From Escherichia phage vB_EcoM_SHAK9454: a stretch of 39,471 bases of DNA. Each line of letters starts with the position of its first letter. Position 1 is the stretch's first letter. The stretch is taken from the sequence record OR594184. One strand, given 5' to 3'. Shown here one piece after another: positions 1 through 38,894 of this stretch. The notes below the pieces were generated by a model that saw only the letters and a list, made by a program, of their open reading frames with translations, was not told the origin of the DNA and did not search any database. The position numbers and the translations under genes were made by a program.

Positions 1-1731
1 ATGACTGCACGTATGAAGGAAGACTTCGTGTTCTTCATCTTCGTTCTCTGGAAAGCTCTTAGCCTTCCGGTTCCAACCCGCTGCCAGATAGATATGTGTA
101 AGAAGCTGGCTGCTGGGGATAATCGCCGCTTCATCCTTCAGGCGTTCCGTGGTATTGGCAAGTCGTTTCTGACCTGTGGTTTCGTGGTCTGGAAACTATG
201 GAACAACCCAGACTTGAAGTTCATGATTGTGTCGGCCTCAAAGGAACGAGCCGATGCTAACTCCATATTCATCAAGCGAATCATCGACCTCATGCCTCAG
301 CTTCAGGAACTCAAACCTAAGCAGGGACAGCGAGATGCGGTTATCAGCTTCGACGTTGGGCCAGCCAAGCCAGACCACTCACCTTCGGTTAAGTCCGTTG
401 GTATCACTGGTCAGTTGACTGGTAGTCGTGCTGACATCCTGATTGCCGATGACGTGGAGGTTCCAAACAACTCTGCTACTCAGGCTGCGAGAGACCGTCT
501 GTCAGAGCTTGTAAAAGAGTTCGACGCTATCCTGAAGCCGGGAGGTACAATCATCTATCTGGGCACTCCTCAGAACGAGATGACCCTGTACCGTGAGCTG
601 GAAGGTCGTGGGTACACCACTACTATCTGGCCCGCTCGTTATCCACGCGACAGGAAGGACTGGCAGTCTTACGGTGACCGTCTGGCTCCTATGCTTCAGG
701 CAGAGCTGGAAGAGGACCCTGAGTCCTTCTACTGGCGTCCTACCGATGAAGTACGATTCGATGATACAGACCTGAAGGAACGTGAGTTGTCCTATGGTAA
801 AGCTGGCTTCGCTCTACAGTTCATGCTTAACCCTAACCTGAGTGATGCCGAGAAGTATCCTCTGAAGCTCCGTGACCTTATCGTAGCAGACTTGGACCCA
901 GAGTCAAGCCCAATGGTCTACCAATGGTTGCCGAACCCTCAGAACAAGCGTGAGGACGTTCCTAACGTTGGACTCATGGGTGATTCCTACCATACGTATC
1001 AGACTGTAGGCTCTGCCTTCAGCGCGTACACTCAGAAGATTCTGGTCATTGACCCTAGTGGTCGTGGTAAGGATGAGACTGGCTACGCTGTTCTGTACCA
1101 GCTCAACGGCTACATCTTCGTGATGGAAGCTGGTGGTATGCGCGGTGGGTATGAGGACTCAACGCTGGAAGCACTGGCTAAGATTGGTCGTAAGTGGAAG
1201 GTCAACGAATACGTCATTGAGGGTAACTTCGGCGATGGTATGTACCTTGAGCTATTCAAGCCTGTAGCGGCCCGTATCCATCCTGCTGCTGTAACTGAAG
1301 TGAAGAGTAAGGGCCAGAAAGAACTCCGCATCTGTGACGTTCTGGAGCCTATCATGGGGTCTCACCGACTTATCGTTAACGCTGCTGCTATCGTCCAAGA
1401 CTACCAGTCGGCCTCTGATAAGGATGGTGTTCGTAACCCTATCTACTCTCTCTTCTACCAGATGACACGTATATCTCGCGAACGTGGAGCCTTGGCACAC
1501 GATGACCGACTTGATGCGCTGGCTATCGGTGTACAGTTCTTCGTTGAGTCTATGGCTAAGGATGCCAACAAAGGCGAACGTGAAGTAACTGAGGAGTGGC
1601 TGGAGGAACAGATGGAGAACCCACGGAAAGGCTTCGAGTCCATCCACACTGAGTTCTGGGACAATGGGGTCCGGGTAACTCACGATACGGACGACGAGCT
1701 GGGACTAGGGTCATACGTTACGTTCCACTAG
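1..1731 (+). CDS. Terminase large subunit (T7 gene 19-like), 3' portion; its 5' end is at 39439..39471 because the window is a rotated genome
   Basis: 576-aa ORF from window start; recalled T7 gp19 blocks ([57 protein letters not shown]); reading frame is continuous with the last 33 nt of the window. Confidence 0.95.
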
Positions 1732-1825
1732 CTGAATGAATAACTATAGGCGAAAGCTGCATCAATACGCAGTTAGTAACCTATGGTTACTACCAGTCTA
1801 ACCTACTGTTTTACAAGGAGTTTGG

Positions 1826-1848
1826 ACTTAACTATCACTATAGGGAAG
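1826..1848 (+). promoter_or_regulatory. Phage RNAP promoter (phiOR-like, near right genome end)
   Basis: ACTTAACTATCACTATAGGGAAGA; matches the 11-member consensus TAAACTATCACTATAGG, +1 G at 1843. Confidence 0.8.
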
Positions 1849-2028
1849 ACCCCCGGTTACTTATAGTATTACTGTAGTGAATATACATATGCAGACTTTA
1901 TGCAAGACCTTAGGAGGAAGACTTCGAGTTCTTACCTAAGGCTTGCACCGATGGAAGGAGGGTGATATTAATCATAATCCCTCCAATACAGATAGTCACC
2001 GACCATAGATACAGGAGGTATGTAGCAT

Positions 2029-2187
2029 ATGGCAAAGACCAAAGCTGTACTTAAAGCTCTGGCGACCAATCGAGCTACATACAGGTTTCTTGCTGCTGTT
2101 CTACTTGCTGCTGGCGCTACTGCTGGAAGTCAGTGGGTCGGGTGGGTCGAGACTCTCGTATGTTCTCTGGTCTCTCAGTGTAATTAA
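2029..2187 (+). CDS. Small hypothetical protein (52 aa), positionally like T7 gene 19.5
   Basis: ATG 2029 with AGGAGG 2013-2018 upstream; MAKTKAVLKALATNRATYRFLAAVLLAAGATAGSQWVGWVETLVCSLVSQCN, hydrophobic core; below the 60-aa cutoff of the ORF track. Confidence 0.4.
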   Translation: MAKTKAVLKALATNRATYRFLAAVLLAAGATAGSQWVGWVETLVCSLVSQCN

Positions 2188-2220
2188 CGCCGTAATGGTA
2201 ACAATCAACGAAAGCAAGAC

Positions 2221-2261
2221 CTAAGGTCAGTTAATAGCTGACGCTACTCTACTGACCTTAG
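2221..2261. repeat. Perfect 10-bp inverted repeat (CTAAGGTCAG / CTGACCTTAG) forming a hairpin near the right genome end
   Basis: Inverted repeat read directly: 2221-2230 and 2252-2261 with a 21-nt spacer. Confidence 0.6.
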
Positions 2262-2339
2262 CTACTGTAGTCAAGGACTTTAGGTAACACCTTAATAGAA
2301 GCTCACTTAGGGTCATCCTACTTATTGGTCTATCCTAGT

Positions 2340-2395
2340 GTCGCCTGACCTACGGTCCTTGACCTACAGTGGCTGTGGCCTACAGTAGTGACGAT
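2340..2395. repeat. Short CCTACAG-type repeats flanking the right terminal repeat
   Basis: gacctacgg / gacctacagtgg / gcctacagtagtg in close succession. Confidence 0.5.
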
Positions 2396-2423
2396 GAGTT
2401 TTGGACCAAAAGTTTGAGACCAC

Positions 2424-2616
2424 ATCTCACACTTCAAGAACCTCAAGTCTCCCCATAGGCCCTCTTTCAGTCCAGACCAAAGGCCCTACCCCTACCCGTG
2501 CCAGTCTATCATAAGGTTGGACAGATGGTCAAGACTTAAGGTCAACGATAGGCTGAGGCTATGGCTTAGGGAAGGACGATAGGTTGGGACTATGGGTCTT
2601 CTTTGAGTCTCTATCT
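2424..2616. repeat. Direct terminal repeat, right-end copy (193 bp)
   Basis: Identical to 2617..2809 by direct comparison; begins ATCTCACAC, similar to the T7 genome end TCTCACAG. Confidence 0.9.
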
Positions 2617-2809
2617 ATCTCACACTTCAAGAACCTCAAGTCTCCCCATAGGCCCTCTTTCAGTCCAGACCAAAGGCCCTACCCCTACCCGTGCCAGTCT
2701 ATCATAAGGTTGGACAGATGGTCAAGACTTAAGGTCAACGATAGGCTGAGGCTATGGCTTAGGGAAGGACGATAGGTTGGGACTATGGGTCTTCTTTGAG
2801 TCTCTATCT
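2617..2809. repeat. Direct terminal repeat, left-end copy (193 bp); genome left end
   Basis: Second tandem copy, offset exactly 193 bp from the first. Confidence 0.9.
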
Positions 2810-2960
2810 GTATAACCATAAGTCACAACCATAGGTCACAGCCTACCTCTCACAACCATAAGCCATAACCTACAGTCTCACTAACCTACAGTCTCACTAA
2901 CCTACAGTCTCAACCATAAGACACCAACACCTAAAGTCATAGACCTACAGTTAATAGACA
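2810..2960. repeat. Array of short direct repeats after the left terminal repeat
   Basis: AACCTACAGTCTCACT repeated about 3 times at 2867-2912; AACCATAAG at 2813, 2853, 2911; analogous to the T7 short repeats flanking its terminal repeat. Confidence 0.7.
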
Positions 2961-3062
2961 CAAGGCTATAGACTTAAGGTCTAAGACATGTTAGTCAAAG
3001 ACTATATCCTCTTACACCATGGGGCCGACGATAGCTTAATCAATATTATTTCAAATTACCTA

Positions 3063-3092
3063 TTGACTATAGGTCCAGACTATGGCCTAATA
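3063..3092 (+). promoter_or_regulatory. Possible host sigma70 early promoter (weak -10)
   Basis: TTGACT at 3063-3068 preceded by an AT-rich stretch; only poor -10 candidates (CCTAAT/CTAATA) 17-18 bp downstream. Confidence 0.25.
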
Positions 3093-3202
3093 GCTTCCGT
3101 CAACACGACACGGCAACAACCGGATAGTGAAGACGCCGGTCCGGTCCGGTTAAGTAGTCAGCCTGTAAGACATACGAACAACAGGCAACCGACAGAAAGT
3201 AG

Positions 3203-3232
3203 TTGACAGGCAGTAACGACTTAAAGTAATAT
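3203..3232 (+). promoter_or_regulatory. Candidate host sigma70 early promoter (A-promoter-like)
   Basis: TTGACA (3203-3208), 18-bp spacer, TAATAT (3227-3232); lies between the left terminal repeat and the first early gene. Confidence 0.45.
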
Positions 3233-3343
3233 GTACCACATCGAAACAACGGTGATGACCAACACTGAATGGTCTACCTGAAGTCCTCTGACTGAAGGGA
3301 ATGCTCTTTAACAATCTGGATAAACTCTTAATGTGCGCCGATA

Positions 3344-3400
3344 GCGACTAACTACAGGGCCTTTGAGTCTACATCTGAAGGCCCTGACTGATAGTCACTA
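3344..3400 (+). promoter_or_regulatory. RNase III-like processing hairpin (early family, copy 1)
   Basis: Imperfect hairpin GACTAACTACAGGGCC ... GGCCCTGACTGATAGTC; conserved CCTGACTGATAGTCACTAAC motif about 20 nt before the start codon. Confidence 0.45.
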
Positions 3401-3418
3401 ACTTAAAGGATGGACACT

Positions 3419-3664
3419 ATGAAACACTTAAGCACAATCACTAATCGCAATGAAGTATTCGTGAACACTAAAGGTTATGCGTGGATTCAGCTTAAAGAGA
3501 TGACAGGAGCGCGTCACCGTGTGGTAGTGCGCAAGGTATCAAGCAAGCAGTTCAGCAACTACAGCGTCGATACTGTGCGTATAGACAACGAGACATACCT
3601 GATAGACTCGCAGATAACCGTGAGTCCTACAGTGGGCGTCTCAGCTCCTTATTTCACTAACTGA
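3419..3664 (+). CDS. Hypothetical early protein (81 aa)
   Basis: ORF with AAGGA 3406-3410 eight nt before ATG 3419; the ATG at 3410 overlaps the RBS and is less likely. Confidence 0.6.
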   Translation: MKHLSTITNRNEVFVNTKGYAWIQLKEMTGARHRVVVRKVSSKQFSNYSVDTVRIDNETYLIDSQITVSPTVGVSAPYFTN

Positions 3665-3666
3665 GA

Positions 3667-3719
3667 GTGATTAACTACAGGTCGTTAGACTGATAGCGGC
3701 CTGACTGATAGTCACTAAC
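3667..3719 (+). promoter_or_regulatory. RNase III-like processing hairpin (early family, copy 2)
   Basis: AACTACAGG ... CCTGACTGATAGTCACTAAC motif upstream of the Ocr-like gene. Confidence 0.45.
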
Positions 3720-3747
3720 ACATAATTAACTTTGAGAGGATATAACT

Positions 3748-4251
3748 ATGGAACGTAATGCTAACGCATACTATGAGCTGCTGGCTACAACCGTTGAGGC
3801 ATTTATCGAGCGTATTCAGTACGACCACCTGACTCAAGATGACGACTACAGCGCTGCGCTGCATGAGGTCGTAGACGGTCAGGTTCCACACTATTACCAC
3901 GAGATTTTTACGGTGATGGCTGCTGATGGTATAGACAACGAGTTCGAAGACTCTGGGATGATACCTGAAACCAAGGACGTAACGCGTATCCTACAAGCTC
4001 GCATCTATGAGGCACTTTATAACGACGTGTCTAATAGCTTGGATGTAGTCTGGTTTGAGGATGAAGAGGCAGACGAAGAGGATGAATATTGGGTAGTTGA
4101 CGCTAAAACAGGCGCAATAATTGTGCAAGCTGTAGCTCTTGAGGTCGCTACTGCATGTGCCAATGTTAACTATGCGGCAGGTCGCCACCTGAAGGTGGAA
4201 GACATCAATGATAACGTAGTGTTCGACCCTGCGGCTGAGGACTGCGAGTGA
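3748..4251 (+). CDS. ocr: Ocr-like DNA-mimic anti-restriction protein (T7 gene 0.3-like) with a ~50-aa C-terminal extension
   Basis: VPHYYHEIFTVMAADGIDNEFEDSGMIPETKDVTRILQARIYE matches the recalled T7 Ocr core; acidic tail EDEEADEEDEYW; ORF continues ~50 codons beyond; strong RBS GAGAGGA. Confidence 0.8.
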   Translation: MERNANAYYELLATTVEAFIERIQYDHLTQDDDYSAALHEVVDGQVPHYYHEIFTVMAADGIDNEFEDSGMIPETKDVTRILQARIYEALYNDVSNSLDVVWFEDEEADEEDEYWVVDAKTGAIIVQAVALEVATACANVNYAAGRHLKVEDINDNVVFDPAAEDCE

Positions 4252-4396
4252 TGGTAACTTATGGCCTCTGCCAGCACCACGTCACTAACGCCCGGCTTAT
4301 GGTCAAGACCGGGCAGTTAGACCACGATTGGGCTATGCGTCTCTTGAAAGTGGTCTACAGGAGACGCAAGCGTATACACGACAGTTTACACGCTAA

Positions 4397-4447
4397 GTGA
4401 CAGACTACAGGTCATCAATGCTGGTGGCCTGACTGATAGTCATTAAC
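4397..4447 (+). promoter_or_regulatory. RNase III-like processing hairpin (early family, copy 3)
   Basis: AGACTACAGG ... CCTGACTGATAGTCATTAAC motif upstream of the ORF at 4464. Confidence 0.4.
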
Positions 4448-4463
4448 AACTGAGAGGGAAGAT

Positions 4464-4691
4464 ATGAACACAATCACTGGTGCCATAACCAAAGGTTTTC
4501 GAGCAATTTTCGGTGAAACGCAAGAAGTATGCACCAATCATAAATTCGTACTTTCTTGCGTAGCAGGTGACGAGTTTGACGGGTTCGATAAACTGGTGGT
4601 TTGCGACCATTGCGGACAAGAGGCTATCCAACACTCAAACGGTAAATTTGAATTAATAGACGATAGCCTTACAGAAGGAGACGGCGAGTAA
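4464..4691 (+). CDS. Hypothetical early protein (75 aa) with Cys pairs, possible zinc ribbon
   Basis: RBS GAGAGGGAAG then ATG; C-x-N-H ... C-x-x-x-x-x-x-x-x-x-x-x-x-x-x-CDHC arrangement; acidic C-terminus. Confidence 0.6.
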   Translation: MNTITGAITKGFRAIFGETQEVCTNHKFVLSCVAGDEFDGFDKLVVCDHCGQEAIQHSNGKFELIDDSLTEGDGE

Positions 4692-4823
4692 CCTAAATAA
4701 ACAGGAGAGAACCAAATCATAGCTTGACCATAACACTGACGTGATGGTACTGAGTGGTAGACGAGAGGTCATCGACTGATAGGTGGCCTCAAAGATTACC
4801 ACTTACATTGATAGGAGTTAACT

Positions 4824-4928
4824 ATGAGCACCGCAATCATCTGGACTATCTCAGGCTTCGTAGCGTGGGGAATGTTTACTCTAGTCTGCAAACTACCGGT
4901 CCTTACTCAACTGTTATGGGGCTTATGA
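4824..4928 (+). CDS. Small hydrophobic peptide (34 aa)
   Basis: AGGAG 4813-4817 six nt before ATG 4824; MSTAIIWTISGFVAWGMFTLVCKLPVLTQLLWGL; stop overlaps the next start (ATGA). Confidence 0.4.
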   Translation: MSTAIIWTISGFVAWGMFTLVCKLPVLTQLLWGL

Positions 4929-5128
4929 CTATGAGTATCGCACTATTGATAGCCATAGGCTATGGAATTATCGCCTACGTGCTGGTGAGAGACATCAACA
5001 AAGCGCGTAAAGTCTACAAATTCAAATATGTACGTCTGGGTAGCTGGACTGTACGTCAACCTAACGGACGATTCATGCGCAACTTAGCGAACGTCTGGGA
5101 TATAGCAACTCTTGGGAGCAAACTGTAA
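4925..5128 (+). CDS. Hypothetical small membrane protein (67 aa)
   Basis: ATG 4925 in frame with track ORF 4754..5128; N-terminal hydrophobic segment MTMSIALLIAIGYGIIAYVLV then basic tail; translationally coupled to neighbours. Confidence 0.5.
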   Translation: MTMSIALLIAIGYGIIAYVLVRDINKARKVYKFKYVRLGSWTVRQPNGRFMRNLANVWDIATLGSKL

Positions 5129-5454
5129 TGAACAAGTCATACGGGATTAATCTGGTACACTCTATGGACGCAGAAATGAACATGTTAAGCCTACTGGCTA
5201 CCGGGTATCGTCACGGAACGTCAAGTCACACCGCACGTCAACAGCAGGAGCGGGACCGTGTACTTCAGGCACGACTTCGGGCCGAGGGCCATAAGTACGA
5301 GCTGATGGGTCTGATATGTGGTGGACGACCAATAACCGACGATGGTAAACTTCTGGTATCAGGCTGGAAGGCGATAGACCAACGGTCATCCATCAAGCAC
5401 ACGACACATGGTGACTTCAGCCATCTTCACGCTAACCCACTGATATGCAAGTAA
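5128..5454 (+). CDS. Hypothetical early protein (108 aa) at the position where T7 has gene 0.7
   Basis: ORF whose ATG overlaps the upstream stop (TAATG); no kinase motifs seen. Confidence 0.6.
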   Translation: MNKSYGINLVHSMDAEMNMLSLLATGYRHGTSSHTARQQQERDRVLQARLRAEGHKYELMGLICGGRPITDDGKLLVSGWKAIDQRSSIKHTTHGDFSHLHANPLICK

Positions 5455-5459
5455 TTATG

Positions 5460-5482
5460 ACTTAACTATCACTATAGGACTC
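5460..5482 (+). promoter_or_regulatory. Phage RNAP promoter immediately upstream of the RNA polymerase gene
   Basis: ACTTAACTATCACTATAGGACTC, +1 G at 5477; leader 5477-5551 contains direct repeats AAGTGAAAGAC x2 and GACTTTAAGT x2. Confidence 0.75.
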
Positions 5483-5551
5483 AAGGTCTAAGACTCAAAG
5501 TGAAAGACCAAAGAGACTTTAAGTGAAAGACTAATAACAAGGACTTTAAGT

Positions 5552-8233
5552 ATGAGCGTCATCTCTATTGACAAACACGACTTCTCTGATGTGTCGAACG
5601 CCATTGAGCCGTTTAACCTGCTGGCTGACCACTACGGGCAAGACCTTGCAGTCAAACAGCTTCAGCTTGAGCATGAGGCATACACTGAAGGCGAGCGACG
5701 TTTCATCAAGAACCTTGAGCGGCAGACTGAGCGCGGGGAACTGGCAGACAATCAGGTCGCCAAGCCTTTGATGCAGACTCTGGTCCCTAAGATTGCGCAA
5801 GCCGTCAGGGAGTGGCACGAAGGCCAAGACGGGAAGCTGTCAACCTCTCGTCCGAGTGTAGCGTTCACCATGTTGAGCACTGAAGAGAAGGCCGTAAAGG
5901 AACGATCTCTGCGCATCTCCTGTGAGTCTGCTGCGGTTATCGTACTGAAGGTCATACTCTCCAAGCTGGTCAAGCCTGAAGGGATCCCGATTACACCTAT
6001 GGCCTCAGCGATAGGTCGCACACTTGAGGACGAAATCCGCTTCGGTCGCATCCGTGACAAAGAGAAAGAGCACTTCAAGAAGGCGATAGCTGATAACCTG
6101 AATAAGCGGGCCGGGGCGTCATATAAGAAAGCCTACATGCAAGCGGTCGAGGCGTCCATGCTGGAGCAAGGCCAACTGGAAGATGCGTGGGGGACTTGGA
6201 GTCCTACAGAGGCCGTCCACGTTGGCATCAAGATGCTCGAGATTGTCATCCAGTCAACACAACTGGTCGAGCTTAAGCGGTACGGTGCTGGTAATGCAGC
6301 GGCTGACGTAGAGATGGTCCACCTGTCAGACTTCTGGGTCAAGAAGATGGCACAACGAGGATTCAGCCTTGCGGGTATCGCCCCAGTCTACCAGCCTTGC
6401 GTCGTCCCACCTAAGCCGTGGACTGGTGTCGTAGGTGGTGGGTACTGGGCCAAAGGTCGCAGACCGTTACCATTGATTCGCTTAGGGTCTAAGTCTGCGG
6501 TAGCACGTTATGAAGACGTATACATGCCTGAAGTCTATGACGCTGTGAATATCATCCAGAATACACCTTGGAAAGTGAACAAGAAGGTATTGGACGTGGT
6601 GAACATGGTCGAGAAGCTGAACAACACGCCTATTGATGACATCCCTCAGATGGAACCGCTGAAGCCTGAGGACTATGCTGGTGAAACCGAGGAGGAACTC
6701 AAGGCATGGAAGAAGGCTGCTGCTGGTATCTATCGCCGCGAGAAGGCCAGACAGTCACGCAGATTATCGCTGAACTTTATCGTTAACCAAGCAAACAAGT
6801 TCTCTCAGTTCAAGGCCATCTGGTTCCCGTACAACATGGATTGGCGAGGTCGTGTCTACGCTGTGCCGATGTTCAACCCTCAGGGTAACGACATGCAAAA
6901 GGGTCTTCTGACTCTGGCAGTCGGTAAGCCTATTGGTGCTGATGGTTTCAAATGGCTGAAGGTTCACGGTGCAAACTGCGCGGGTGTCGATAAAGTCACC
7001 TTCGAGGAGCGTATCAAGTGGGTGGAAGATAACCACGACAACATCATGGCTGCTGCCAAGGCACCGATGGATAGCATTGAGTGGTGGGGCAAGTTAGACT
7101 CTCCGTTCTGCTTCCTAGCGTTCTGCTTCGAGTATGCTGGCGTAATGCACCACGGCTTGTCTTACTCCTGCTCGCTGCCGATAGCGTTCGATGGGTCCTG
7201 CTCTGGGATTCAGCACTTCAGCGCTATGCTTCGTGACCACATCGGTGGACATGCAGTAAACCTGACGCCATCCGGTAAGGTCCAAGACATCTACCGCATT
7301 GTGTCTGACCGCATTGAGGAGCAGCTTAAAGTACTGCTGATTAACGGCACTGACAACGAGATGGTCACTCACGAGGATAAGAAAACTGGTGAGATTACCG
7401 AACGTATCAAGCTGGGGACACGAGAGCTGGCCCGTCAGTGGCTGACATACGGTATGTCACGCAAGGTCACTAAGCGTTCAGTCATGACTCTGGCATACGG
7501 GTCGAAAGAGTACGGCTTCGCAGACCAAGTTTACGAGGACATCGTGATGCCAGCGATTGACTCAGGGTCTGGCGCTATGTTCACTGAACCAAGCCAAGCG
7601 TCTCGCTTCATGGCAAAGATGATTTGGGAAGCTGTGAGTGTGACAGTAGTTGCTGCGGTTGACGCGATGAAGTGGCTTCAAGGTGCTGCCAAGCTGCTGG
7701 CTGCTGAAGTGAAGGACAAGAAGACTGGAGAAATCCTGAAGCCTTGCCTTCCGGTACACTGGGTCACACCTGATGGTTTCCCTGTCTGGCAGGAATACCG
7801 CAAGAAGGACACCACTCGTCTGAACCTGATGTTCTTAGGGTCATTCAACCTTCAGCCTACCGTCAACAAAGGCACGAAGAAAGAGCTGGACAAGCACAAG
7901 CAGGAGTCAGGCATTAGCCCGAACTTCGTCCACTCACAAGATGGTAGCCACCTCCGCAAGACTGTAGTCCACACTCACCGAAAGTATGGCGTGATGTCAT
8001 TCGCAGTGATTCACGATAGCTTCGGGACCATCCCGGCTGACGCTGAGTATCTGTTCCGTGGAGTCCGTGAGACGATGGTAGAGACTTACCGCGATAACGA
8101 TGTGCTGCTTGACTTCTACGAGCAGTTTGAATACCAGCTTCACGAGAGCCAGCGCGACAAGTTGCCTGAGCTTCCGAAGAAAGGTAAACTGAATATCGAA
8201 GACATCTTGTCTTCAGACTTTGCATTCGCTTAA
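5552..8233 (+). CDS. Single-subunit DNA-dependent RNA polymerase (T7 gene 1-like)
   Basis: 893 aa; DGSCSGIQHFSAMLRD (motif A), HDSFGT (motif C), C-terminal DFAFA, specificity-loop region TRLNLMFLGSFNLQP. Confidence 0.98.
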   Translation: MSVISIDKHDFSDVSNAIEPFNLLADHYGQDLAVKQLQLEHEAYTEGERRFIKNLERQTERGELADNQVAKPLMQTLVPKIAQAVREWHEGQDGKLSTSRPSVAFTMLSTEEKAVKERSLRISCESAAVIVLKVILSKLVKPEGIPITPMASAIGRTLEDEIRFGRIRDKEKEHFKKAIADNLNKRAGASYKKAYMQAVEASMLEQGQLEDAWGTWSPTEAVHVGIKMLEIVIQSTQLVELKRYGAGNAAADVEMVHLSDFWVKKMAQRGFSLAGIAPVYQPCVVPPKPWTGVVGGGYWAKGRRPLPLIRLGSKSAVARYEDVYMPEVYDAVNIIQNTPWKVNKKVLDVVNMVEKLNNTPIDDIPQMEPLKPEDYAGETEEELKAWKKAAAGIYRREKARQSRRLSLNFIVNQANKFSQFKAIWFPYNMDWRGRVYAVPMFNPQGNDMQKGLLTLAVGKPIGADGFKWLKVHGANCAGVDKVTFEERIKWVEDNHDNIMAAAKAPMDSIEWWGKLDSPFCFLAFCFEYAGVMHHGLSYSCSLPIAFDGSCSGIQHFSAMLRDHIGGHAVNLTPSGKVQDIYRIVSDRIEEQLKVLLINGTDNEMVTHEDKKTGEITERIKLGTRELARQWLTYGMSRKVTKRSVMTLAYGSKEYGFADQVYEDIVMPAIDSGSGAMFTEPSQASRFMAKMIWEAVSVTVVAAVDAMKWLQGAAKLLAAEVKDKKTGEILKPCLPVHWVTPDGFPVWQEYRKKDTTRLNLMFLGSFNLQPTVNKGTKKELDKHKQESGISPNFVHSQDGSHLRKTVVHTHRKYGVMSFAVIHDSFGTIPADAEYLFRGVRETMVETYRDNDVLLDFYEQFEYQLHESQRDKLPELPKKGKLNIEDILSSDFAFA

Positions 8234-8248
8234 CAGGAGAAGAAGTAT

Positions 8249-8479
8249 ATGTCAATGAAACTTGTAGTACACAACAGAGTATACAACGATGGGTCGGGAC
8301 GTTGCCATGTAGAGCTTACTTATAAGGATTTAGTCATTCTCCGAGACAGATTACAAGCAGGTGTGACTGGGTGGATTCAACCTAACGAGTACAGCCTTAT
8401 AGCTTCGATTGATGAAGTGCTTAACGCGTGGATGGAAGACGAGCGCACTCAGTATCCGTCATTCCCTATAATTAGATAA
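8249..8479 (+). CDS. Hypothetical protein (76 aa) immediately downstream of the RNAP gene
   Basis: AGGAG 8235-8239 then ATG 8249; no recognised motif. Confidence 0.55.
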   Translation: MSMKLVVHNRVYNDGSGRCHVELTYKDLVILRDRLQAGVTGWIQPNEYSLIASIDEVLNAWMEDERTQYPSFPIIR

Positions 8480-8489
8480 GGAGAGAGTT

Positions 8490-8705
8490 ATGAAATTTGC
8501 ACACAAGCATGCTGGAGTTAAGGGTGGGACTCAAATCGTGACCGTAACAGAACACAACGGCAATGGTCTGGTGAAGACCACGGTCATTCCTACCGAAATG
8601 TCAAAGCAGCTTAACGTCCCATTCAAGACCCTCGTCTATCTTGTGGAATCCAGCCACGAGAAATACCTGAAAGACGCAGTGACCAAGCTGGAGCAGACCA
8701 AATGA
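8490..8705 (+). CDS. Hypothetical protein (71 aa)
   Basis: TAAGGAGAGAG then ATG 8490; no recognised motif. Confidence 0.55.
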   Translation: MKFAHKHAGVKGGTQIVTVTEHNGNGLVKTTVIPTEMSKQLNVPFKTLVYLVESSHEKYLKDAVTKLEQTK

Positions 8706-8780
8706 CAGACCTACAGTTACTGGCCTTGTGGCTGGGAGCACTCGCAGTATTCACTTTAATCCCACGCAGAAGAGGTTAAC

Positions 8781-8803
8781 CCTAAACTATCACTATAGGA
8801 TTA
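8781..8803 (+). promoter_or_regulatory. Phage RNAP promoter (phi1.1-like)
   Basis: CCTAAACTATCACTATAGGATTAG, +1 G at 8798. Confidence 0.8.
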
Positions 8804-8846
8804 GACTCAAGGTCATGACTCAAAGTCGTGGCCTTCATGATTAACC
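8801..8846 (+). promoter_or_regulatory. RNase III-like hairpin (late family, R1.1-like position)
   Basis: TAGACTCAAGGTCAT ... GTGGCCTTCATGATTAAC; 8-bp stem AAGGTCAT/GTGGCCTT with G-U pairs; same motif at 16014 and 38895. Confidence 0.5.
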
Positions 8847-8873
8847 CTAACTCATTCAATCAGGAGCTACACC

Positions 8874-9053
8874 ATGTATCAGAACACTATCAACTTCGAG
8901 CGAATCCGTGAACGTCAGCAGACTGAAGATTATATTCCGAAGGGACGCAAGCTGAACAAGACCAAGCGTGGTGGAGGTGTCAAGGGTGCTTTCCGTAACG
9001 CTGAAGGTAAAGACTCTCTGGTCAACCAAGAGAAATACTTCGTAGGAGCATAA
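8874..9053 (+). CDS. T7 gene 1.1-like small basic protein (59 aa)
   Basis: CAGGAG then ATG 8874; KGRKLNKTKR matches the recalled T7 gp1.1 motif; below the track cutoff. Confidence 0.6.
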   Translation: MYQNTINFERIRERQQTEDYIPKGRKLNKTKRGGGVKGAFRNAEGKDSLVNQEKYFVGA

Positions 9054-9057
9054 CGCT

Positions 9058-9315
9058 ATGGGCCGACTTTATAGTGGCAACCTAAACGCTTTCAAAGCAG
9101 CGTGTAACAGACTCTATCAGTTAGACTTCTGCGTGATACAGCAGGACTGGTACGATGCGCATTTTCGTAAAGAGTGTATGAGACTTCAAGTCGAGGACCG
9201 AGCTGGTAACATCTTCGCTCTTAAGACCTTCGCACATCACGATGAAGACGTACTGTACAACACTGCAACAGGCTTCCTTAACTGTCTCGCTAACCAACTA
9301 GACACATGGAGATAA
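9058..9315 (+). CDS. T7 gene 1.2-like protein (dGTPase inhibitor family)
   Basis: MGRLYSGNLNAFKAA...HHDEDVLYN closely matches the recalled T7 gp1.2. Confidence 0.85.
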   Translation: MGRLYSGNLNAFKAACNRLYQLDFCVIQQDWYDAHFRKECMRLQVEDRAGNIFALKTFAHHDEDVLYNTATGFLNCLANQLDTWR

Positions 9316-9319
9316 CACA

Positions 9320-10363
9320 ATGACAACTATTAAAACCAACCCGCACCGCGCTGTAGATTACTCTGAGTCAGGCGTTAAGAAAGCACTGGAAGCAGCCGGG
9401 TCGCTGGAAGCTGAAGTGAAATATGACGGTGTGCGGTTGAATATTCCGGTCTTCCCTGATGGGCGAACTGAATGGTTAAGCCGTGAGTCAAAGACGCTTC
9501 CGGCCTTAGACCATTTGTCAACAGTTGGTCAGGACATCGGAGCGTGCCGTGCGTCCGACTGGCGATGGTTCCTGAAGCAAGCAGGACATGAGGTATCTGG
9601 CCTGATGATTGATGGCGAGGTAATGGTCAAGGGTGCAGACTTCAACACGTCCTCAGGTCTTATCCGAACGAAGTGGACCAAGAAGACCAACGTTGATTGG
9701 CACACAGACCCGATGGCCCCAGCTAAAGTACCATTCTGTCTGGACCAGAAGTTCATCCAAGTGGTCGTCTACGGGGTCATCGACCTCAACGTCATCCTTG
9801 ACCCGAAAGCCGAAGGTCCTATCCATAGCGTCACTCGCCTGAAGGCCGAAGCTATCGTACCTCTCCTCCAGAAATACTTCCCGGAAATCGACTGGGTTCT
9901 GTCTGAGTCACACACGGTCTATGACCTTGAGTCGCTCAACTCCCTGTACGAACAGAAGCGTCTGGAAGGACATGAGGGTCTGGTAGTAAAGGACCCACTG
10001 GGTAAATATAAGCGCGGCAAGAAGTCAGGCATGTGGAAGATGAAGCCTGAGGAGACCATCGACGGGACCGTGTGTGGCCTCGTGTGGGGGACTCCGGGTA
10101 AGGCCAACGAAGGTAAGGTGATTGGCTTCGAGGTGCTGCTTGAGGATGGCATGGTGGTTAACGCCTGTGGTCTGTCTGAAGAACAGAAGGACGAGTTTAC
10201 GGAAGCCTGTAACACTGATACATATATTCTCGGTGGAATCAATCCGTACGAAGGATGGCAGTGTGAAGTACTCTTCATGGAGCGGTTCCCAGATGGATCC
10301 CTTCGTCACCCTAGCTTCAAGTGCTGGCGTGGAACGGAAGATAACCCAACCGTTAAGAGTTAA
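9320..10363 (+). CDS. ATP-dependent DNA ligase (T7 gene 1.3-like)
   Basis: 347 aa; adenylation motif KYDGVR; position after gene 1.2. Confidence 0.92.
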   Translation: MTTIKTNPHRAVDYSESGVKKALEAAGSLEAEVKYDGVRLNIPVFPDGRTEWLSRESKTLPALDHLSTVGQDIGACRASDWRWFLKQAGHEVSGLMIDGEVMVKGADFNTSSGLIRTKWTKKTNVDWHTDPMAPAKVPFCLDQKFIQVVVYGVIDLNVILDPKAEGPIHSVTRLKAEAIVPLLQKYFPEIDWVLSESHTVYDLESLNSLYEQKRLEGHEGLVVKDPLGKYKRGKKSGMWKMKPEETIDGTVCGLVWGTPGKANEGKVIGFEVLLEDGMVVNACGLSEEQKDEFTEACNTDTYILGGINPYEGWQCEVLFMERFPDGSLRHPSFKCWRGTEDNPTVKS

Positions 10364-10373
10364 CTAAACGTCA

Positions 10374-10411
10374 ACCCAGTGGTCTTCGGACTGCTGGGTT
10401 TCTTTGCTTTG
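10374..10411 (+). terminator. Early transcription terminator (TE-like), intrinsic
   Basis: Hairpin ACCCAGTGG-tcttcgga-CTGCTGGGTT followed by TTTCTTTGCTTTG, directly after the ligase gene as in T7. Confidence 0.6.
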
Positions 10412-10446
10412 TGCTAGCAAGCTATCGTCTGGGCCACCAGTTAGAC

Positions 10447-10469
10447 CCTAAGCTATCACTATAGGACAA
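10447..10469 (+). promoter_or_regulatory. Phage RNAP promoter
   Basis: CCTAAGCTATCACTATAGGACAAC, +1 G at 10464. Confidence 0.75.
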
Positions 10470-10495
10470 CCATAACTCGACATAAGGAGGCCGAC

Positions 10496-10750
10496 ATGTT
10501 TAAGAACTTAATGTTCAATCGTTATACCAGTACATTCCACCTGTCTCACAACCCATTAGCTTGCATTAAGCGCAACGAGAAGATGGGATACTTCGGGAAG
10601 GCCGTTAAGCTGTCACCTACAGTCTATGCTCTGATTACTCCGGGAAAAGCTGAAGAGGCTCGAAAGAAGCAGGAAACAAGTGTGCCCGTGGTCTACACTA
10701 AGTGGCCTCGCTTTCGTCTGTTCGTTGAGTTCGTGAAGGAGGTGTTCTGA
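10496..10750 (+). CDS. Hypothetical protein (84 aa), class II region
   Basis: TAAGGAGG then ATG 10496; no recognised motif. Confidence 0.6.
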   Translation: MFKNLMFNRYTSTFHLSHNPLACIKRNEKMGYFGKAVKLSPTVYALITPGKAEEARKKQETSVPVVYTKWPRFRLFVEFVKEVF

Positions 10751-10820
10751 TGGGATGTATAGCTTGCTTAGAGAAGGATGACCGTTATCCACACACGCCT
10801 GTAATAAAGGAGTTAACAAT

Positions 10821-11294
10821 ATGAACGCACTTGAACAAGAGATTATCATTAAGTTGGTAGATAATAACGAAGGTCGCCCAGATGATTTGAATGGCTGCAG
10901 TATTTTCTGCCATACTGTCCCTTGCTTCCTCTGCCCTGTAAATATCAATGAAAAGATAACCTTAGGTGAAATCCGAGCGATGGACATACGTAAGCCTAAA
11001 CTGGAGAAACCAGAGGTAACTCCTACAGATGACCAACCTTCAACTGAGTCAATCGACGCTGTCCGCAAGCCGTCCCACTATCAGGTATTTGACGGAGTGG
11101 AGTCCATTGAGATTATCGCTCGGTCCATGACTGTCAGCGAGTTCCGTGGGTTCTGCATGGGTAACGTCCTGAAGTATCGACTCCGAGCTGGTAAGAAGTC
11201 AGAGCTGGCGACTATGGAGAAGGACCTGAACAAAGCAGCCTTCTATCAGGAGCTGTTCGACCTACATAAAGGTAAGTGCTATGCTTCCGAGTGA
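10821..11294 (+). CDS. T7 gene 1.7-like protein (nucleotide kinase family), apparently lacking the usual N-terminal segment
   Basis: EIIIKLVDNNEGRPDDLNGC...RAGKKSELA resembles recalled T7 gp1.7; AAGGAG RBS; frame is closed 5 codons upstream of the ATG. Confidence 0.6.
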   Translation: MNALEQEIIIKLVDNNEGRPDDLNGCSIFCHTVPCFLCPVNINEKITLGEIRAMDIRKPKLEKPEVTPTDDQPSTESIDAVRKPSHYQVFDGVESIEIIARSMTVSEFRGFCMGNVLKYRLRAGKKSELATMEKDLNKAAFYQELFDLHKGKCYASE

Positions 11295-11372
11295 GTGGTG
11301 CGAGCGTAAATTTGAGGAGACAGGTAACGTCGATTACCTTCAGCTCTACAACTTATGGAAGGAGCGTGGTCT

Positions 11373-11531
11373 ATGACTGACGTAGAGAAGAAATACATCG
11401 TGGAACTTGAGGGACGTACCCAGTCCTTCGAGGTTCCGTTGTACGCAAAGTCTCTTGAAGAGGCTACCCTGAAGTCCCAAGAGTATGAGGACGCTGGGTT
11501 TGTGGTCGGACGGATTCGCCCTGAGACCTAA
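11373..11531 (+). CDS. Host RNA polymerase inhibitor (T7 gene 2-like), 52 aa
   Basis: GGAAGGAG then ATG 11373; [14 protein letters not shown]...[10 protein letters not shown] matches recalled T7 Gp2 SFEVPIYAETLDEA...AGFEVTRVRP; below the track cutoff. Confidence 0.75.
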
Positions 11532-11549
11532 ACTATCACTGTAGGACAG
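11527..11549 (+). promoter_or_regulatory. Phage RNAP promoter variant (phi2.5-like), A to G at -3
   Basis: CCTAAACTATCACTGTAGGACAGA. Confidence 0.6.
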
Positions 11550-11589
11550 ACGTCCAGTTAGTAACTTTTAAATTAGGAGATTTACACCG

Positions 11590-12288
11590 ATGGCTAAAGA
11601 GCAACTGAAGACTTTCACCACTCCGGTAGCTGGTATCGTTGAGCCTTACGCATGGCTGAACAAAGCAGACACCAAGTTTAACGAGCGTGGTGAGCATAAG
11701 GTTAACCTGACATTCGACCTGAGCAACCATAAGGTCCGTAAGATGATTGATGTCTTACAGAAGATTCACGACGATGCGTATGCAAAAGCACTCGCAGACC
11801 ACGAGAAGAACCCACCTCAGGTTCAGCGTGGCAAGAAGCCTATTGAACCACGAGAAGGCGACATGCCGTGGATTGAGAATGGTGACGGTACTGTTACCCT
11901 TAAGTTTAAATGCTTTGCGTCTTACCTGAAAGACGGCAAGTCCGAGCCTATCGTATTACGGTTCTACGACACCGATGCTAAACTCATCCGTGACGTCCCG
12001 AATATCTGCGCTGGGTCTAAGCTGAAGGTCAAGTTTAAAGTCCTGCCGTTCAAGTGGAACGCTGCGACTGGTGCAAGCGTTAAGCTTCAGCTTGAGTCCT
12101 GCCTTCTGGTAGAACTGAAGGAGTGGAAAGGCGATGGTGCTGGTGGCGATGGTGGCTGGGGTGATGATGAAGACCTTGGTACTGGCTACAAAGCGTCAAC
12201 CGTTGGTGACTTCGGTGACGATGACTTCGGTGACGATGGTTCCGAAGGTGGTGACGACTCCAACTCTGGTGGCGATTACGACTTCTAA
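11590..12288 (+). CDS. Single-stranded DNA-binding protein (T7 gene 2.5-like)
   Basis: 232 aa, same length as T7 gp2.5; acidic C-terminal tail ending DYDF; GKKP..EGDMP and VKLQLES blocks. Confidence 0.92.
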   Translation: MAKEQLKTFTTPVAGIVEPYAWLNKADTKFNERGEHKVNLTFDLSNHKVRKMIDVLQKIHDDAYAKALADHEKNPPQVQRGKKPIEPREGDMPWIENGDGTVTLKFKCFASYLKDGKSEPIVLRFYDTDAKLIRDVPNICAGSKLKVKFKVLPFKWNAATGASVKLQLESCLLVELKEWKGDGAGGDGGWGDDEDLGTGYKASTVGDFGDDDFGDDGSEGGDDSNSGGDYDF

Positions 12289-12734
12289 TGAAACTTAAAG
12301 AGAAACTGGAGGCTTACTCTGAGGTTTCTCCTAGTGGATGCTGGGAGTGGCAACTCTCCCGGTTTCCTGCTGGATATGGTCGAATATCAATAGGACGTCA
12401 GAAACAGGACTACGCTCACCGAGTTTCATACAGGGAGTACAAAGGTCCAATACCTGATGGATTGGTTGTTAGACATAAATGTGATAATCCCTGCTGCTGT
12501 AACCCTGAGCACCTTGAACTAGGTACGCAGAAGGACAACATGAGGGACTGCATGGAGCGAGGACGAAAGTCTAATCCTCCCGTATTCAAAGGAGAAGCTA
12601 ATCACAAGACTAAGCTGACCAAGGAAAACGTAGAGTTCATCTTAGAGTCTATGCTACCAGCTATAGAACTAGCCAAGATGTTTGGAGTCACACCAGCGGC
12701 TATAAACTGGAGGAGACAACATGGCTGGACGTAG
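12288..12734 (+). CDS. HNH homing endonuclease
   Basis: CWEW...GYGR...HRVSY...HKCDNPCCCNPEHLELGTQKDN motif; codon usage richer in ATA/AGA/AGG than neighbours. Confidence 0.8.
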   Translation: MKLKEKLEAYSEVSPSGCWEWQLSRFPAGYGRISIGRQKQDYAHRVSYREYKGPIPDGLVVRHKCDNPCCCNPEHLELGTQKDNMRDCMERGRKSNPPVFKGEANHKTKLTKENVEFILESMLPAIELAKMFGVTPAAINWRRQHGWT

Positions 12735-13173
12735 CATAAGCAGAGGGCATCAAGTAGGAGCCTACCGCTCTGGACTTGAAGCAAAGAACCAGGAGTGGCT
12801 TGAGAAGAATGGAGTTAAGGCTGATTACGAGGCTTATAAGATAGGCTACGTAGTCCCATCTAGCGATCATTTTTACACGCCGGACTTCGTTTTACCTAAC
12901 GGTATCATCGTGGAGACCAAAGGTATCTTCGATAGTGATGACCGCAAGAAGCACCTTCTGGTACGAGAACAGCACCCAGAGTTAGACATCCGGTTCGTGT
13001 TCTCAAGTTCCCGCTCCAAGTTATACAAAGGGTCTCCGACCACGTATGGCGCATGGTGCGAAAAGAACGGCTATAAGTATGCCGATAAGTTCATCCCGGT
13101 TGAGTGGCTGAGAGAGGCGACTGTACGTCTGCCCTCAGGTATACTCATCCCCAAGAAGAAAGGAGTTAAGTGA
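12721..13173 (+). CDS. Endonuclease I, Holliday junction resolvase (T7 gene 3-like)
   Basis: YTPDF.LPNGI.VETKG...DDRKKHLL.REQHPELDIR.VFSSSR.KLYKGSPT.YG matches recalled T7 gp3. Confidence 0.92.
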   Translation: MAGRSISRGHQVGAYRSGLEAKNQEWLEKNGVKADYEAYKIGYVVPSSDHFYTPDFVLPNGIIVETKGIFDSDDRKKHLLVREQHPELDIRFVFSSSRSKLYKGSPTTYGAWCEKNGYKYADKFIPVEWLREATVRLPSGILIPKKKGVK

Positions 13174-13625
13174 TGACTCGTAAAGCAATCATCGTTGACC
13201 TGATGGATGGTGATGCACATTCAGACAACTACAAGGCAGGACAGGAGGTCTTCGTTAAGTTCTACCATAAGTCACTCAACCCTAGTGATGGAGACCTGTG
13301 GCAGGTGTCGCATGATGGTGTCAAGTGGCTGGCCTCAATGTATGGTCGCCGCCTGAAGTTTATAGATGCTGGTGATAAACCTCAAGTCCTGCCAGCCTCA
13401 AGCGTCCCTCCTGTCACCGTTAAACGTGAAGTCCTGACCATCAACAAGATTGGTGTAGGCCAGACGTTCATCGTCCATGGAAAGCCTGAAGAAGTTTACG
13501 TGAAGATTAGCAACTCACACGTCTTCAACCATAAGCATCTCCAGATGCACACCACGGACGCACAACGCTTCACCCAGCACCTGAATCTGGTGGTCGTAGA
13601 ATTGGTGGTGTACAATGGTAAGTAA
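13173..13625 (+). CDS. Hypothetical protein (150 aa) inserted between endonuclease I and lysozyme
   Basis: AGGAG 13161-13165 then ATG 13173 overlapping the endonuclease I stop (TGATG); no recognised motif. Confidence 0.65.
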   Translation: MTRKAIIVDLMDGDAHSDNYKAGQEVFVKFYHKSLNPSDGDLWQVSHDGVKWLASMYGRRLKFIDAGDKPQVLPASSVPPVTVKREVLTINKIGVGQTFIVHGKPEEVYVKISNSHVFNHKHLQMHTTDAQRFTQHLNLVVVELVVYNGK

Positions 13626-14073
13626 GGTACAGTTCAATCCACGGTCCCGGACCGACGCTATCTTCGTTCACTGTTCGGCTACCAAGCCAGAGATGGACAT
13701 CGGGGTAGAGACCATCCGTATGTGGCACAAGCAGCAAGGCTGGCTGGACGTAGGCTACCACTTTATCATCAAGCGCGATGGTACTGTGGAAGAGGGACGC
13801 CCGGTCAATGTCGTAGGGTCACACGTTAAGGACTGGAACTCACGGTCTGTAGGCGTCTGCCTTGTAGGTGGAATTGACGCTAAGGGCAAGTTTGAAGCTA
13901 ACTTCACTCCGGCCCAGATGAACTCCCTGCGCAACAAGCTGGCTGACCTGAAGGTCATGTATCCTCAGGCAGAAATCAAAGCACATCATGACGTAGCACC
14001 AAAGGCGTGTCCAAGTTTCGACTTGCAACGCTGGCTGTCTACCAATGAACTGGTCACTTCCGACCGAGGCTAA
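13615..14073 (+). CDS. Lysozyme, N-acetylmuramoyl-L-alanine amidase (T7 gene 3.5-like)
   Basis: TDAIFVHCSATKP...GWLDVGYHFIIKRDGTVE...HH.VAPKACPSFDL.RW...ELVTSDRG, near-identical blocks to recalled T7 lysozyme. Confidence 0.95.
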   Translation: MVSKVQFNPRSRTDAIFVHCSATKPEMDIGVETIRMWHKQQGWLDVGYHFIIKRDGTVEEGRPVNVVGSHVKDWNSRSVGVCLVGGIDAKGKFEANFTPAQMNSLRNKLADLKVMYPQAEIKAHHDVAPKACPSFDLQRWLSTNELVTSDRG

Positions 14074-14091
14074 ACTATCACCTTAGAGATG
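14069..14091 (+). promoter_or_regulatory. Divergent phage-promoter-like element followed by a small hairpin
   Basis: TAAACTATCACCTTAGAG shares -17 to -5 with the consensus but differs at -4 to +1; GGGACC-ttag-GGTCCC hairpin at 14091-14106. Confidence 0.35.
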
Positions 14092-14134
14092 GGACCTTAG
14101 GGTCCCTTTGTGCGCATTATTGATTAAGGAGTGA

Positions 14135-15838
<1,704 letters not shown>

Positions 15839-15849
15839 GGAGGGGTACA

Positions 15850-16014
15850 TTGCTAAGAAAACTTAAAGCTCGCTACCATCGGTTCATGTACAAATGGTGG
15901 AGCGATGAAGCAACCTTCCTGTCCAACATTCTGGGAGACCAGAGGTTCAACTCTAAGGCATGGAAGAAAGCTAACCGGAAGTTTATGTACCACTTCTTGC
16001 GTACAGACTTCTAG
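15850..16014 (+). CDS. Small basic hypothetical protein (54 aa, TTG start)
   Basis: AGGAGG 15838-15843 six nt before TTG 15850; the track's longer ORF from 15817 overlaps the helicase 3' end. Confidence 0.35.
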   Translation: MLRKLKARYHRFMYKWWSDEATFLSNILGDQRFNSKAWKKANRKFMYHFLRTDF

Positions 16015-16060
16015 GTCTAGACTCAAGGTCATTCACAGCGAGTGGCCTTTATGATTAGAC
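16014..16060 (+). promoter_or_regulatory. RNase III-like hairpin (late family, R4.7-like position)
   Basis: TAGACTCAAGGTCAT ... GTGGCCTTTATGATTAGAC. Confidence 0.5.
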
Positions 16061-16082
16061 TTATAACTAAAGGAGAAGCAAT

Positions 16083-16514
16083 ATGAGGACTTGCAGTAGA
16101 TGTGGCTCTACAAAGGAGTCCACTGAGTTCAGGAAGACAAATGGGTGGTGCATATCCTGTGTTCGTGAGGATAATAGGTCGCGATATCATCGAAACAAAG
16201 GTACAGAGGCCGGTGAGGCGCATCGCTTATCTGCCCGTAAGTCTTGGCTTAAGAAAGCCTATGGTCTCACACTTGAGGAATATGACACTATGTTCGATAG
16301 TCAAAAGGGCAGATGCGCTATATGCTCAGACATTATCTTCAAGCATGGGTCTATTGAGAGTAAGAATAATGTAGCCCACGTTGACCATTGCCATGACTCG
16401 GGTATTGTTAGGGGATTGCTATGTGGTACATGTAATAGCGCACTTGGTAAGTTCGGTGACAAGGTAGCCGTGCTTAGGGCTGCTATAACGTACTTGGAGA
16501 AATATAATGTTTAA
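16083..16514 (+). CDS. Endonuclease VII-family (T4 gp49-like) nuclease with N-terminal zinc ribbon; homing-endonuclease-like insert
   Basis: CAIC...HVDHCHDSGIVRGLLCGTCNSALG matches the recalled T4 endonuclease VII motif HLDHDH..G.VRGLLC..CN; N-terminal CSRCGS...CISC; AT-rich codon usage. Confidence 0.8.
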   Translation: MRTCSRCGSTKESTEFRKTNGWCISCVREDNRSRYHRNKGTEAGEAHRLSARKSWLKKAYGLTLEEYDTMFDSQKGRCAICSDIIFKHGSIESKNNVAHVDHCHDSGIVRGLLCGTCNSALGKFGDKVAVLRAAITYLEKYNV

Positions 16515-38891: not shown

Positions 38892-38894
38892 GTG

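Follow-up and report, generated by a model that had tools for sequence, protein, structure and literature searches.

Three intergenic hairpins in the genome of Escherichia phage vB_EcoM_SHAK9454 (OR594184) are, as judged from their sequence, very probably processing signals for the host (E. coli) RNase III, orthologous to R1.1, R4.7, and R18.5 of the phages T7 and T3. The window analyzed here is the whole record of 39,471 nt, and the hairpins lie on its plus strand at 8796–8849 (site 1), 16012–16063 (site 2), and 38891–38942 (site 3). The assignment rests on the sequence and the fold of the elements, the covariation of their paired positions, their strand specificity, their synteny with known sites, their match to the determinants of RNase III recognition, and the identity of one of them to a validated substrate. 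That the hairpins are cleaved in this phage, where exactly the cut falls, and how it affects mRNA stability and translation are inferred from homology. The finding is textbook T7 biology in a K1F-like genome, and as such is already known.

Around site 1, the sequence shares 97% identity with Escherichia phage phiYIO1-1 and ~90% with K1F, and OR594184 can therefore be assigned, on this sequence identity, to Kayfunavirus as a K1F-like member of the T7 group. The large terminase gene (1–1731) is the first in the record. A perfect 193-nt tandem duplication (2424–2616 and 2617–2809) represents the two direct terminal repeats of the linear T7-like genome joined head to tail, so that the record is the linear genome rotated to the start of the large terminase gene, with the physical ends at 2616|2617. 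The genome contains 11 K1F-type phage promoters. The identities of the genes flanking the hairpins were taken from PHROG matches.

The 15-mer TAGACTCAAGGTCAT has exactly three zero-mismatch matches in the window, at 8802, 16018, and 38896, all on the plus strand, and 13 matches, as compared to 1.36 expected, when up to three mismatches are allowed. The 18-mer GTGGCCTTTATGATTAAC has three matches with one or two mismatches, at 8828, 16042, and 38922, as compared to 0.01 expected. The arrangement of TAGACTCAAGGTCAT followed, 12–14 nt on, by GTGGCCTT(T/C)ATG(A/G)TTA is seen at 8802–8845, 16018–16059, and 38896–38939, in each case on the plus strand and between genes. All three copies fold into hairpins in which an asymmetric internal loop separates the upper from the lower stem, with predicted energies of −20 to −26 kcal/mol. 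A preliminary description of this DNA, made from the letters alone, had placed three conserved hairpins at these loci and had proposed fold prediction as a check; both the loci and the folding were borne out.

Each site forms a hairpin of about two helical turns, with a lower stem of 7–9 bp, an internal loop of ACUC on the 5′ strand and (U/C)AUG(A/G) on the 3′ strand, and an upper stem of 10–11 bp. Site 1 has an ACUC/CAUGA loop, an 11-bp upper stem, and a UCAAA apical loop (58.4 bits in the covariance model described below), and does not differ from the K1F hairpin of that junction in any of the 50 aligned core columns. Site 2 has an ACUC/UAUGA internal loop (64.8 bits), and in site 3 (63.1 bits) the 3′ loop strand is of the UAUGG variant, which is common to the R18.5 sites of T7, T3, phiYeO3-12, K11, and Pila. 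The earlier characterization of the three as nearly identical holds for the arms, which agree at 15/15 and 16–17/18 positions, but not for the apical loops and lower stems, and the pairwise identity over 50 aligned columns that include these parts is 70–82%. The fold z-scores of sites 1–3 (−2.7 to −2.9, with 2 of 200 shuffled sequences folding equally well) are modest alone, and the covariation presented below is the stronger support for the hairpins. A scan of the whole genome against Rfam 15 at the gathering score gave zero matches; Rfam appears to have no model for the T7 RNase III sites.

All three hairpins occupy intercistronic positions on the transcribed strand, at junctions that are orthologous, by PHROG matches and synteny, to those in T7, T3, phiYeO3-12, K11, K1F, and EcoDS1. 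Site 1 follows the RNA polymerase gene (5552–8233) and two small ORFs, and precedes a gp1.1-like ORF and the gp1.2 dGTPase inhibitor gene; the ligase-sized ORF downstream of it (9320–10363) matches, in position, the gene 1.3 ligase of the K1F annotation. Upstream of site 2 are the primase/helicase gene (14138–15838) and a gp4.3-like ORF, and downstream of it come an endonuclease VII-like ORF and the DNA polymerase gene. Site 3 is flanked by the small terminase gene (38628–38891) and an Rz-like spanin gene (38993–39442). The gene context is thus as first described, with small ORFs in between. The designation of the family as late applies only to site 3, whereas site 1 is early or middle, being located upstream of the early terminator at 10373–10400, which was found in a terminator scan of 1700–17000, and site 2 is among the genes for DNA metabolism.

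The ORF that follows site 2 (16083–16514, 143 aa, endonuclease VII/HNH-like) separates the R4.7 hairpin from the DNA polymerase gene, the start of which it overlaps by 8 nt. In contrast, K1F and EcoDS1 lack this ORF, and their R4.7 hairpin abuts gene 5. The ORF probably arose by insertion of a homing-endonuclease gene immediately 3′ of the hairpin.

A K1F-type phage RNA polymerase promoter of the phi1.1 type (8782–8799, plus strand), which matches the consensus core CTAAACTATCACTATAGG exactly, overlaps the foot of hairpin 1; in MZ726794, a promoter is annotated at the homologous sequence. As judged from T7-type promoters, transcription from the promoter at 8782–8799 is predicted to start at G8798, within the foot of the hairpin. 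Of the 11 phage promoters of the genome, none separates site 2 from the DNA polymerase gene, and none separates site 3 from genes 18.5/19. As there is no promoter downstream of sites 2 and 3 before the next genes, these hairpins must let the polymerase pass.

The core ACUCAAGGUC...GUGGCCUUUAUGAU is present in T7 at the gene junctions equivalent to sites 1–3. A pattern search of T7 for ACTCAAGGTC...GTGGCCTTTATGAT found six motifs, at 866–893, 1441–1471, 5861–5890, 6421–6451, 13867–13895, and 36830–36859, which we take to be R0.3, R0.5, R1.1, R1.3, R4.7, and R18.5, respectively. Five of them (R0.3, R0.5, R1.1, R4.7, and R18.5) end exactly 3 nt past the cleavage coordinates reportedly given by Dunn and Studier 1983, namely 890, 1468, 5887, 13892, and 36856, respectively. 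The T7 sites have the core ACUCAAGGUC...GUGGCCUU(U/C)AUG(A/G)U, as do sites 1–3, and the two sets agree in the 4/5-nt asymmetric internal loop, the content of the proximal and distal boxes, the strand, and the gene junctions. In particular, the 10-bp upper stem AAGGUCAUUC/GAGUGGCCUU and both loop strands of site 2 are base-for-base identical to those of T7 R1.1, with a different apical loop. The lower stems and apical loops of sites 1–3 differ from those of T7, with compensatory changes. The surroundings also differ in part. The T7 promoter phi1.1A (start 5848) precedes R1.1, as the promoter at 8782–8799 precedes site 1; however, R1.1 of T7 is flanked by phi1.1A and phi1.1B, whereas here a single promoter is present, upstream of site 1. 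In addition, unlike in T7, two extra small ORFs lie between gene 1 and site 1, and phi4.7 of T7 has no counterpart after site 2.

The feature tables of T7 (NC_001604, V01146), EcoDS1, K1F, and K11 list no RNase III sites, and the evidence from annotation therefore comes from T3, phiYeO3-12, and gh-1. The T3 RefSeq record (NC_003298) contains 10 stem_loops labelled "RNase III recognition site", among which R1.1 (6003–6053), R4.7 (12970–13018), and R18.5 (35038–35088) contain the motif of sites 1–3. Likewise, phiYeO3-12 (NC_001271) has 10 annotated stem_loops, with the motif in R1.1, R4.7, and R18.5. The correspondence to R1.1, R4.7, and R18.5 that had been proposed from the letters alone is therefore upheld by motif and synteny in T7 and by annotated sites in T3 and phiYeO3-12. 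In the latter two phages, the foot of R1.1 lies partly within the phi1.1 promoter, an arrangement also seen for hairpin 1 and the promoter at 8782–8799. Both also possess the further class-A sites R0.3, R0.5, R1.3, and R6.5, whereas the class-A sites of the present genome are the three only.

The record of the Pseudomonas phage gh-1 (NC_004665) lists 13 putative RNase III sites, which, like sites 1–3, are intergenic hairpins on the transcribed strand, with R7 at an R4.7-like junction. A covariance-model search of gh-1 gave zero matches. Its R7 and R12 sites (e.g., 11746–11793 and 33530–33577) retain only ACUCAAGG...CCUUU, the portion comprising the loop and the proximal box, whereas the rest of the core is not conserved. 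This suggests that ACUCAAGG...CCUUU is the oldest portion of the RNase III signal. Since gh-1 has neither a model match nor the rest of the core, the full motif is specific to the T7-like phages of enterobacteria and Vibrio.

The covariance model was seeded with 17 sites, comprising five from this genome, six from T7, and six from T3, and it recovered R1 and R6.5 of both T7 and T3, all of which were outside the seed. A motif search in related phages, which had also been proposed as a check, gave a positive answer: the model search found 63 sites jointly in all nine genomes examined (this phage, T7, T3, phiYeO3-12, K11, K1F, EcoDS1, Serratia phage Pila, and Vibrio phage ICP3), all on the plus strand. 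In each of 100 IMG/VR loci, all model matches were on one strand. With the filters off, the model found seven forward sites in this genome and no more, and the reverse strands of site 3 and of an early member at 4749–4810 scored ~10 bits, as compared to 51–63 bits forward; no other hairpins were found on the minus strand of this genome. This strand asymmetry and the conserved U.G wobbles indicate that the element acts at the RNA level. A 61-nt query with site 2 matched 473 phage records, each of them belonging to a T7-like phage of enterobacteria or Vibrio, and the motif pattern was found in at least 120 stretches in IMG/VR, where, among the matches listed, most were on contigs of 37–47 kb and a few on fragments of 4.6–32 kb.

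The covariation is strong, above all in the lower stem. Standard pairs occupy 95.8–96.0% of the alignment cells, as compared to 26–47% when the partners are slid. Compensatory changes were seen at 11–12 of the 15 pairs, and the observed covariation score was reached by none of 500 shuffles. Every pair in the lower stem varies, whereas the upper-stem pairs adjoining the loop and the internal loop itself are almost invariant. The nine-genome covariation set is free of motif-selection bias. For the IMG/VR loci, which were retrieved by the motif pattern, the invariance of the core among the 122 distinct sequences is partly built in and therefore inflated, and with this reservation, position 1 of the proximal box is G-C in 122 of 122, position 2 is A-U in 121 of 122 and never G-C, and the U.G wobbles are conserved. 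Among the close Kayfunavirus relatives, the hairpins are more conserved (99% for site 1 and 92% for site 3) than their flanks (91% and 87%, respectively), and the variation among the hairpins is confined to the apical stem and loop, including changes in length that preserve pairing.

The determinants of E. coli RNase III have been mapped by Pertzev and Nicholson on a minimal form of T7 R1.1 (PMC1540722). In the 4-bp proximal box, a canonical A-U is found at position 2, where G-C or C-G blocks binding, and G-C or C-G at position 4 blocks catalysis, the natural R1.1 having U.C there; in the 2-bp distal box, "UA/UG", the U.G wobble is obligatory; and the minimal substrate uR1.1 needs only the R1.1 stem, the loop sequence not being critical (PMC1540722). 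The R1.1 RNA is 60 nt long and contains an asymmetric internal loop (4 nt/5 nt) (PMC6121014), which restricts cleavage to one strand (PMC1540722; PMC6121014).

The boxes were placed on the alignment columns by counting back from the cut, and this mapping was checked by length: the stretch that begins with the C in ACUC (C16) and ends with the U in UAU measures 28 nt, equal to the 28-nt product reported in PMC1540722, a match that is also the one support obtained here for the T7 cleavage coordinates. The proximal box of sites 1–3 reads G-C, A-U, A-U, with C.U in the last place at sites 2 and 3 and C.C in place of C.U at site 1, in agreement with the determinants. The distal box reads U.G and then U-A in sites 2 and 3, and U.G and then G-C in site 1, which agrees only in part; the CAUGA loop strand of site 1 is also found in T7 R4.7. 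Because the upper stem and the loop strands of site 2 are identical to those of R1.1 base for base, its sequence contains, the apical loop apart, an experimentally validated substrate, the T7 R1.1 stem and internal loop. Either the RNase III boxes or the geometry of the single-cut loop explains every strongly conserved position. The suggestion, made from the letters alone, that conservation beyond the needs of pairing reflects a sequence-specific factor therefore proved apt, the factor most simply being the host RNase III, whose proximal- and distal-box determinants match the invariant positions (PMC1540722).

On the model of the T7 sites, long polycistronic transcripts would read through each hairpin, those crossing site 1 coming from the host polymerase and from the phi1.1 promoter, and those crossing sites 2 and 3 from upstream phage promoters. 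The RNA would fold into a stem of ~20 bp broken by the asymmetric loop (5′ ACUC, 3′ (U/C)AUG(A/G)), and RNase III would bind it via the proximal box adjoining the loop (C.U or C.C, A-U, A-U, G-C) and also via the distal box (U.G, then U-A). A single phosphodiester would then be cut in the 3′ loop strand, after (U/C)AU, at the predicted positions U8838|G8839, U16052|G16053, and U38932|G38933. The upstream mRNA would keep a stable 3′-terminal hairpin shielding it from 3′ exonucleases, a pattern said to protect processed RNA from 3′-to-5′ exonucleases (PMC1540722), and the downstream mRNA would start 30–60 nt before the ribosome binding site or start codon. A literature search for RNase III sites or RNA-end data for K1F or Kayfunavirus found nothing relevant.

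Three other explanations were weighed against processing by RNase III. Intrinsic (rho-independent) terminators or attenuators are stable intergenic hairpins, as exemplified by TE and Tphi of T7, and each of the present elements is also a GC-containing intergenic hairpin; moreover, WebGeSTer labelled the homologue of site 1 in the ASO2B record (MZ726794.1, 1710–1746, equivalent to 8802–8838) as a rho-independent terminator. However, sites 1–3 differ from TE and Tphi in that no U-tract follows any of the stems (the following sequences are CAUGAUUAACCC, UAUGAUUAGACU, and UAUGGUUAACAC), in their conserved asymmetric internal loop, and in their need for read-through. The scan of 1700–17000 that detected 10373–10400 (TE) detected neither site 1 nor site 2. 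Furthermore, efficient termination at sites 2 and 3 would be lethal, since the DNA polymerase, Rz, and large terminase genes beyond them lack promoters of their own, and the conserved asymmetric loop and the U.G wobbles would serve nothing in termination. Lacking a U-tract and requiring read-through, the sites are hardly conceivable as terminators, and this explanation was rejected. The label in MZ726794 is probably a mis-annotation, since no U-tract is present and the element corresponds to the RNase III site R1.1; it would wrongly imply that the transcript ends upstream of genes 1.1 and 1.2.

The similarity of the three copies could alternatively reflect recent copying within the genome, as duplicates of a mobile or recombination module, rather than functional constraint. 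The module duplication raised in the preliminary description is very unlikely in this form, and was rejected on the pairwise identities: although the 15-nt 5′ arm is identical in three of three copies, the paralogues are only 70–82% identical, no more than orthologues from different genera (60–80%), and the lower stems and loops are site specific. The three junctions are already filled in Teseptimavirus, Teetrevirus, Przondovirus, and Kayfunavirus, the AUGG specific to R18.5 is present in eight of nine genomes from four genera, and the conserved bases coincide with the RNase III determinants. The apical stem-loop of K11 R4.7, with its 88–90% identity to the R18.5 hairpin of the K1F type, hints that sites have exchanged sequence on occasion, and the homing-endonuclease-like ORF directly 3′ of site 2 would also suit a mobile module. 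For the whole hairpin family, an old common origin is likely, whereas recent copying is not. A phage-encoded, sequence-specific RNA-binding protein, acting on a translational operator or as an antiterminator instead of or besides RNase III, would account for ~25 nt being nearly invariant across genera, a depth of conservation that is not fully explained given that T7 grows without RNase III (PMC6938266). However, no candidate protein was identified, the motif is common to phages with different early gene sets (T7, K1F-like phages, and Vibrio phage ICP3), the RNase III boxes and the single-cut loop geometry account for all strongly conserved positions, and purified RNase III alone cuts T7 R1.1 (PMC6121014). 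Nothing requires such a protein, and we consider its involvement extremely unlikely.

With processing by host RNase III as the preferred explanation, the ~25-nt core still seems to be conserved more deeply than RNase III recognition needs, as T7 tolerates the loss of the enzyme (PMC6938266). A second role for the core, either as a homology patch for recombination or site conversion, with the hairpins as module boundaries, or as the target of some further phage factor, is doubtful but conceivable. Three features hint at the homology patch, namely the likeness between the apical stem-loop of K11 R4.7 and the K1F-type R18.5 hairpin, the homing-endonuclease-like gene directly 3′ of site 2, and a break in Kayfunavirus homology at the 3′ foot of hairpin 1. 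At the last of these (8850–8873), the homology among the five relatives compared, including MZ726794 and K1F, breaks exactly at the foot, the gap between hairpin 1 and the start codon being filled by two unrelated leader variants of ~25 nt, after which the similarity resumes.

A comparison of K11 13462–13525 with K1F 36444–36506 and with 38887–38949 of the present genome gave 88–90% identity, including the apical stem-loop CATTACTATATGTAGTGG. K11 R4.7 is closer to the K1F-type R18.5 than to any orthologous R4.7, and this likeness in sequence may reflect exchange between the sites.

The family is not limited to the three loci, as had been supposed, but has seven members, the other four being diverged hairpins in the early region, all on the plus strand. 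The hairpin at 3339–3406 precedes the first early gene and belongs to a variant class, ACUACAGG...CCUGACUGAU (31.3 bits, E = 6e-5 with the filters off; fold z-score −3.7). Those at 3662–3723 (44.9 bits; fold z-score −5.4) and 4392–4451 (55.7 bits; included in the model seed, and also folded) are of the variant class as well, and that at 4749–4810 (51.6 bits; a seed sequence; fold z-score −4.4) has the variant core ACGAGAGG...CCUCAAAGAU. The internal loop and proximal box of these four early hairpins are variants resembling those of T7 and T3 R1, whereas the early sites R0.3 and R0.5 of T7 and T3 are of the ACUCAAGG type. The variant loop of the early hairpins explains why the three R1.1-class sites had been perceived as a separate late family. 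With the filters off, the model found no counterparts of R1.3, R3.8, R6.5, and R13 in the genome, and shuffled sequence folded just as well as the leaders downstream of the promoters at 14070, 20159, and 28768. The weak 5′-arm matches at 2531 and 2724 were discarded as one terminal-repeat sequence counted twice in the 193-nt repeat, and the matches at 2955, 2969, 5375, and minus-strand 9921 and 21709 had no support from the model with the filters off.

The main value of these assignments lies in annotation, as the K1F and EcoDS1 records leave their RNase III sites unannotated. The seven putative RNase III signals provide a first map of mRNA boundaries for Kayfunavirus, a genus in use for phage therapy and engineering. 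Biologically, nothing new emerges; the results restate the old point that purifying selection on these sites is strong across genera, despite the tolerance of T7 to the loss of RNase III.

Two further observations concern the region of the early genes and the genome end. A phage-type promoter with one mismatch to the K1F consensus core is present at 5461–5478, ~75 nt ahead of the gene for the phage RNA polymerase, and would let the phage RNA polymerase transcribe its own gene; a "phi" promoter is annotated at the equivalent place in EcoDS1, whereas T7 has none there. Just inside the left terminal repeat, at 2810–2931, lies an array of short imperfect direct repeats of the TCACAACCATAAG and CTAACCTACAGTCTCA types; T7-like genomes are known to have such arrays in a comparable place.
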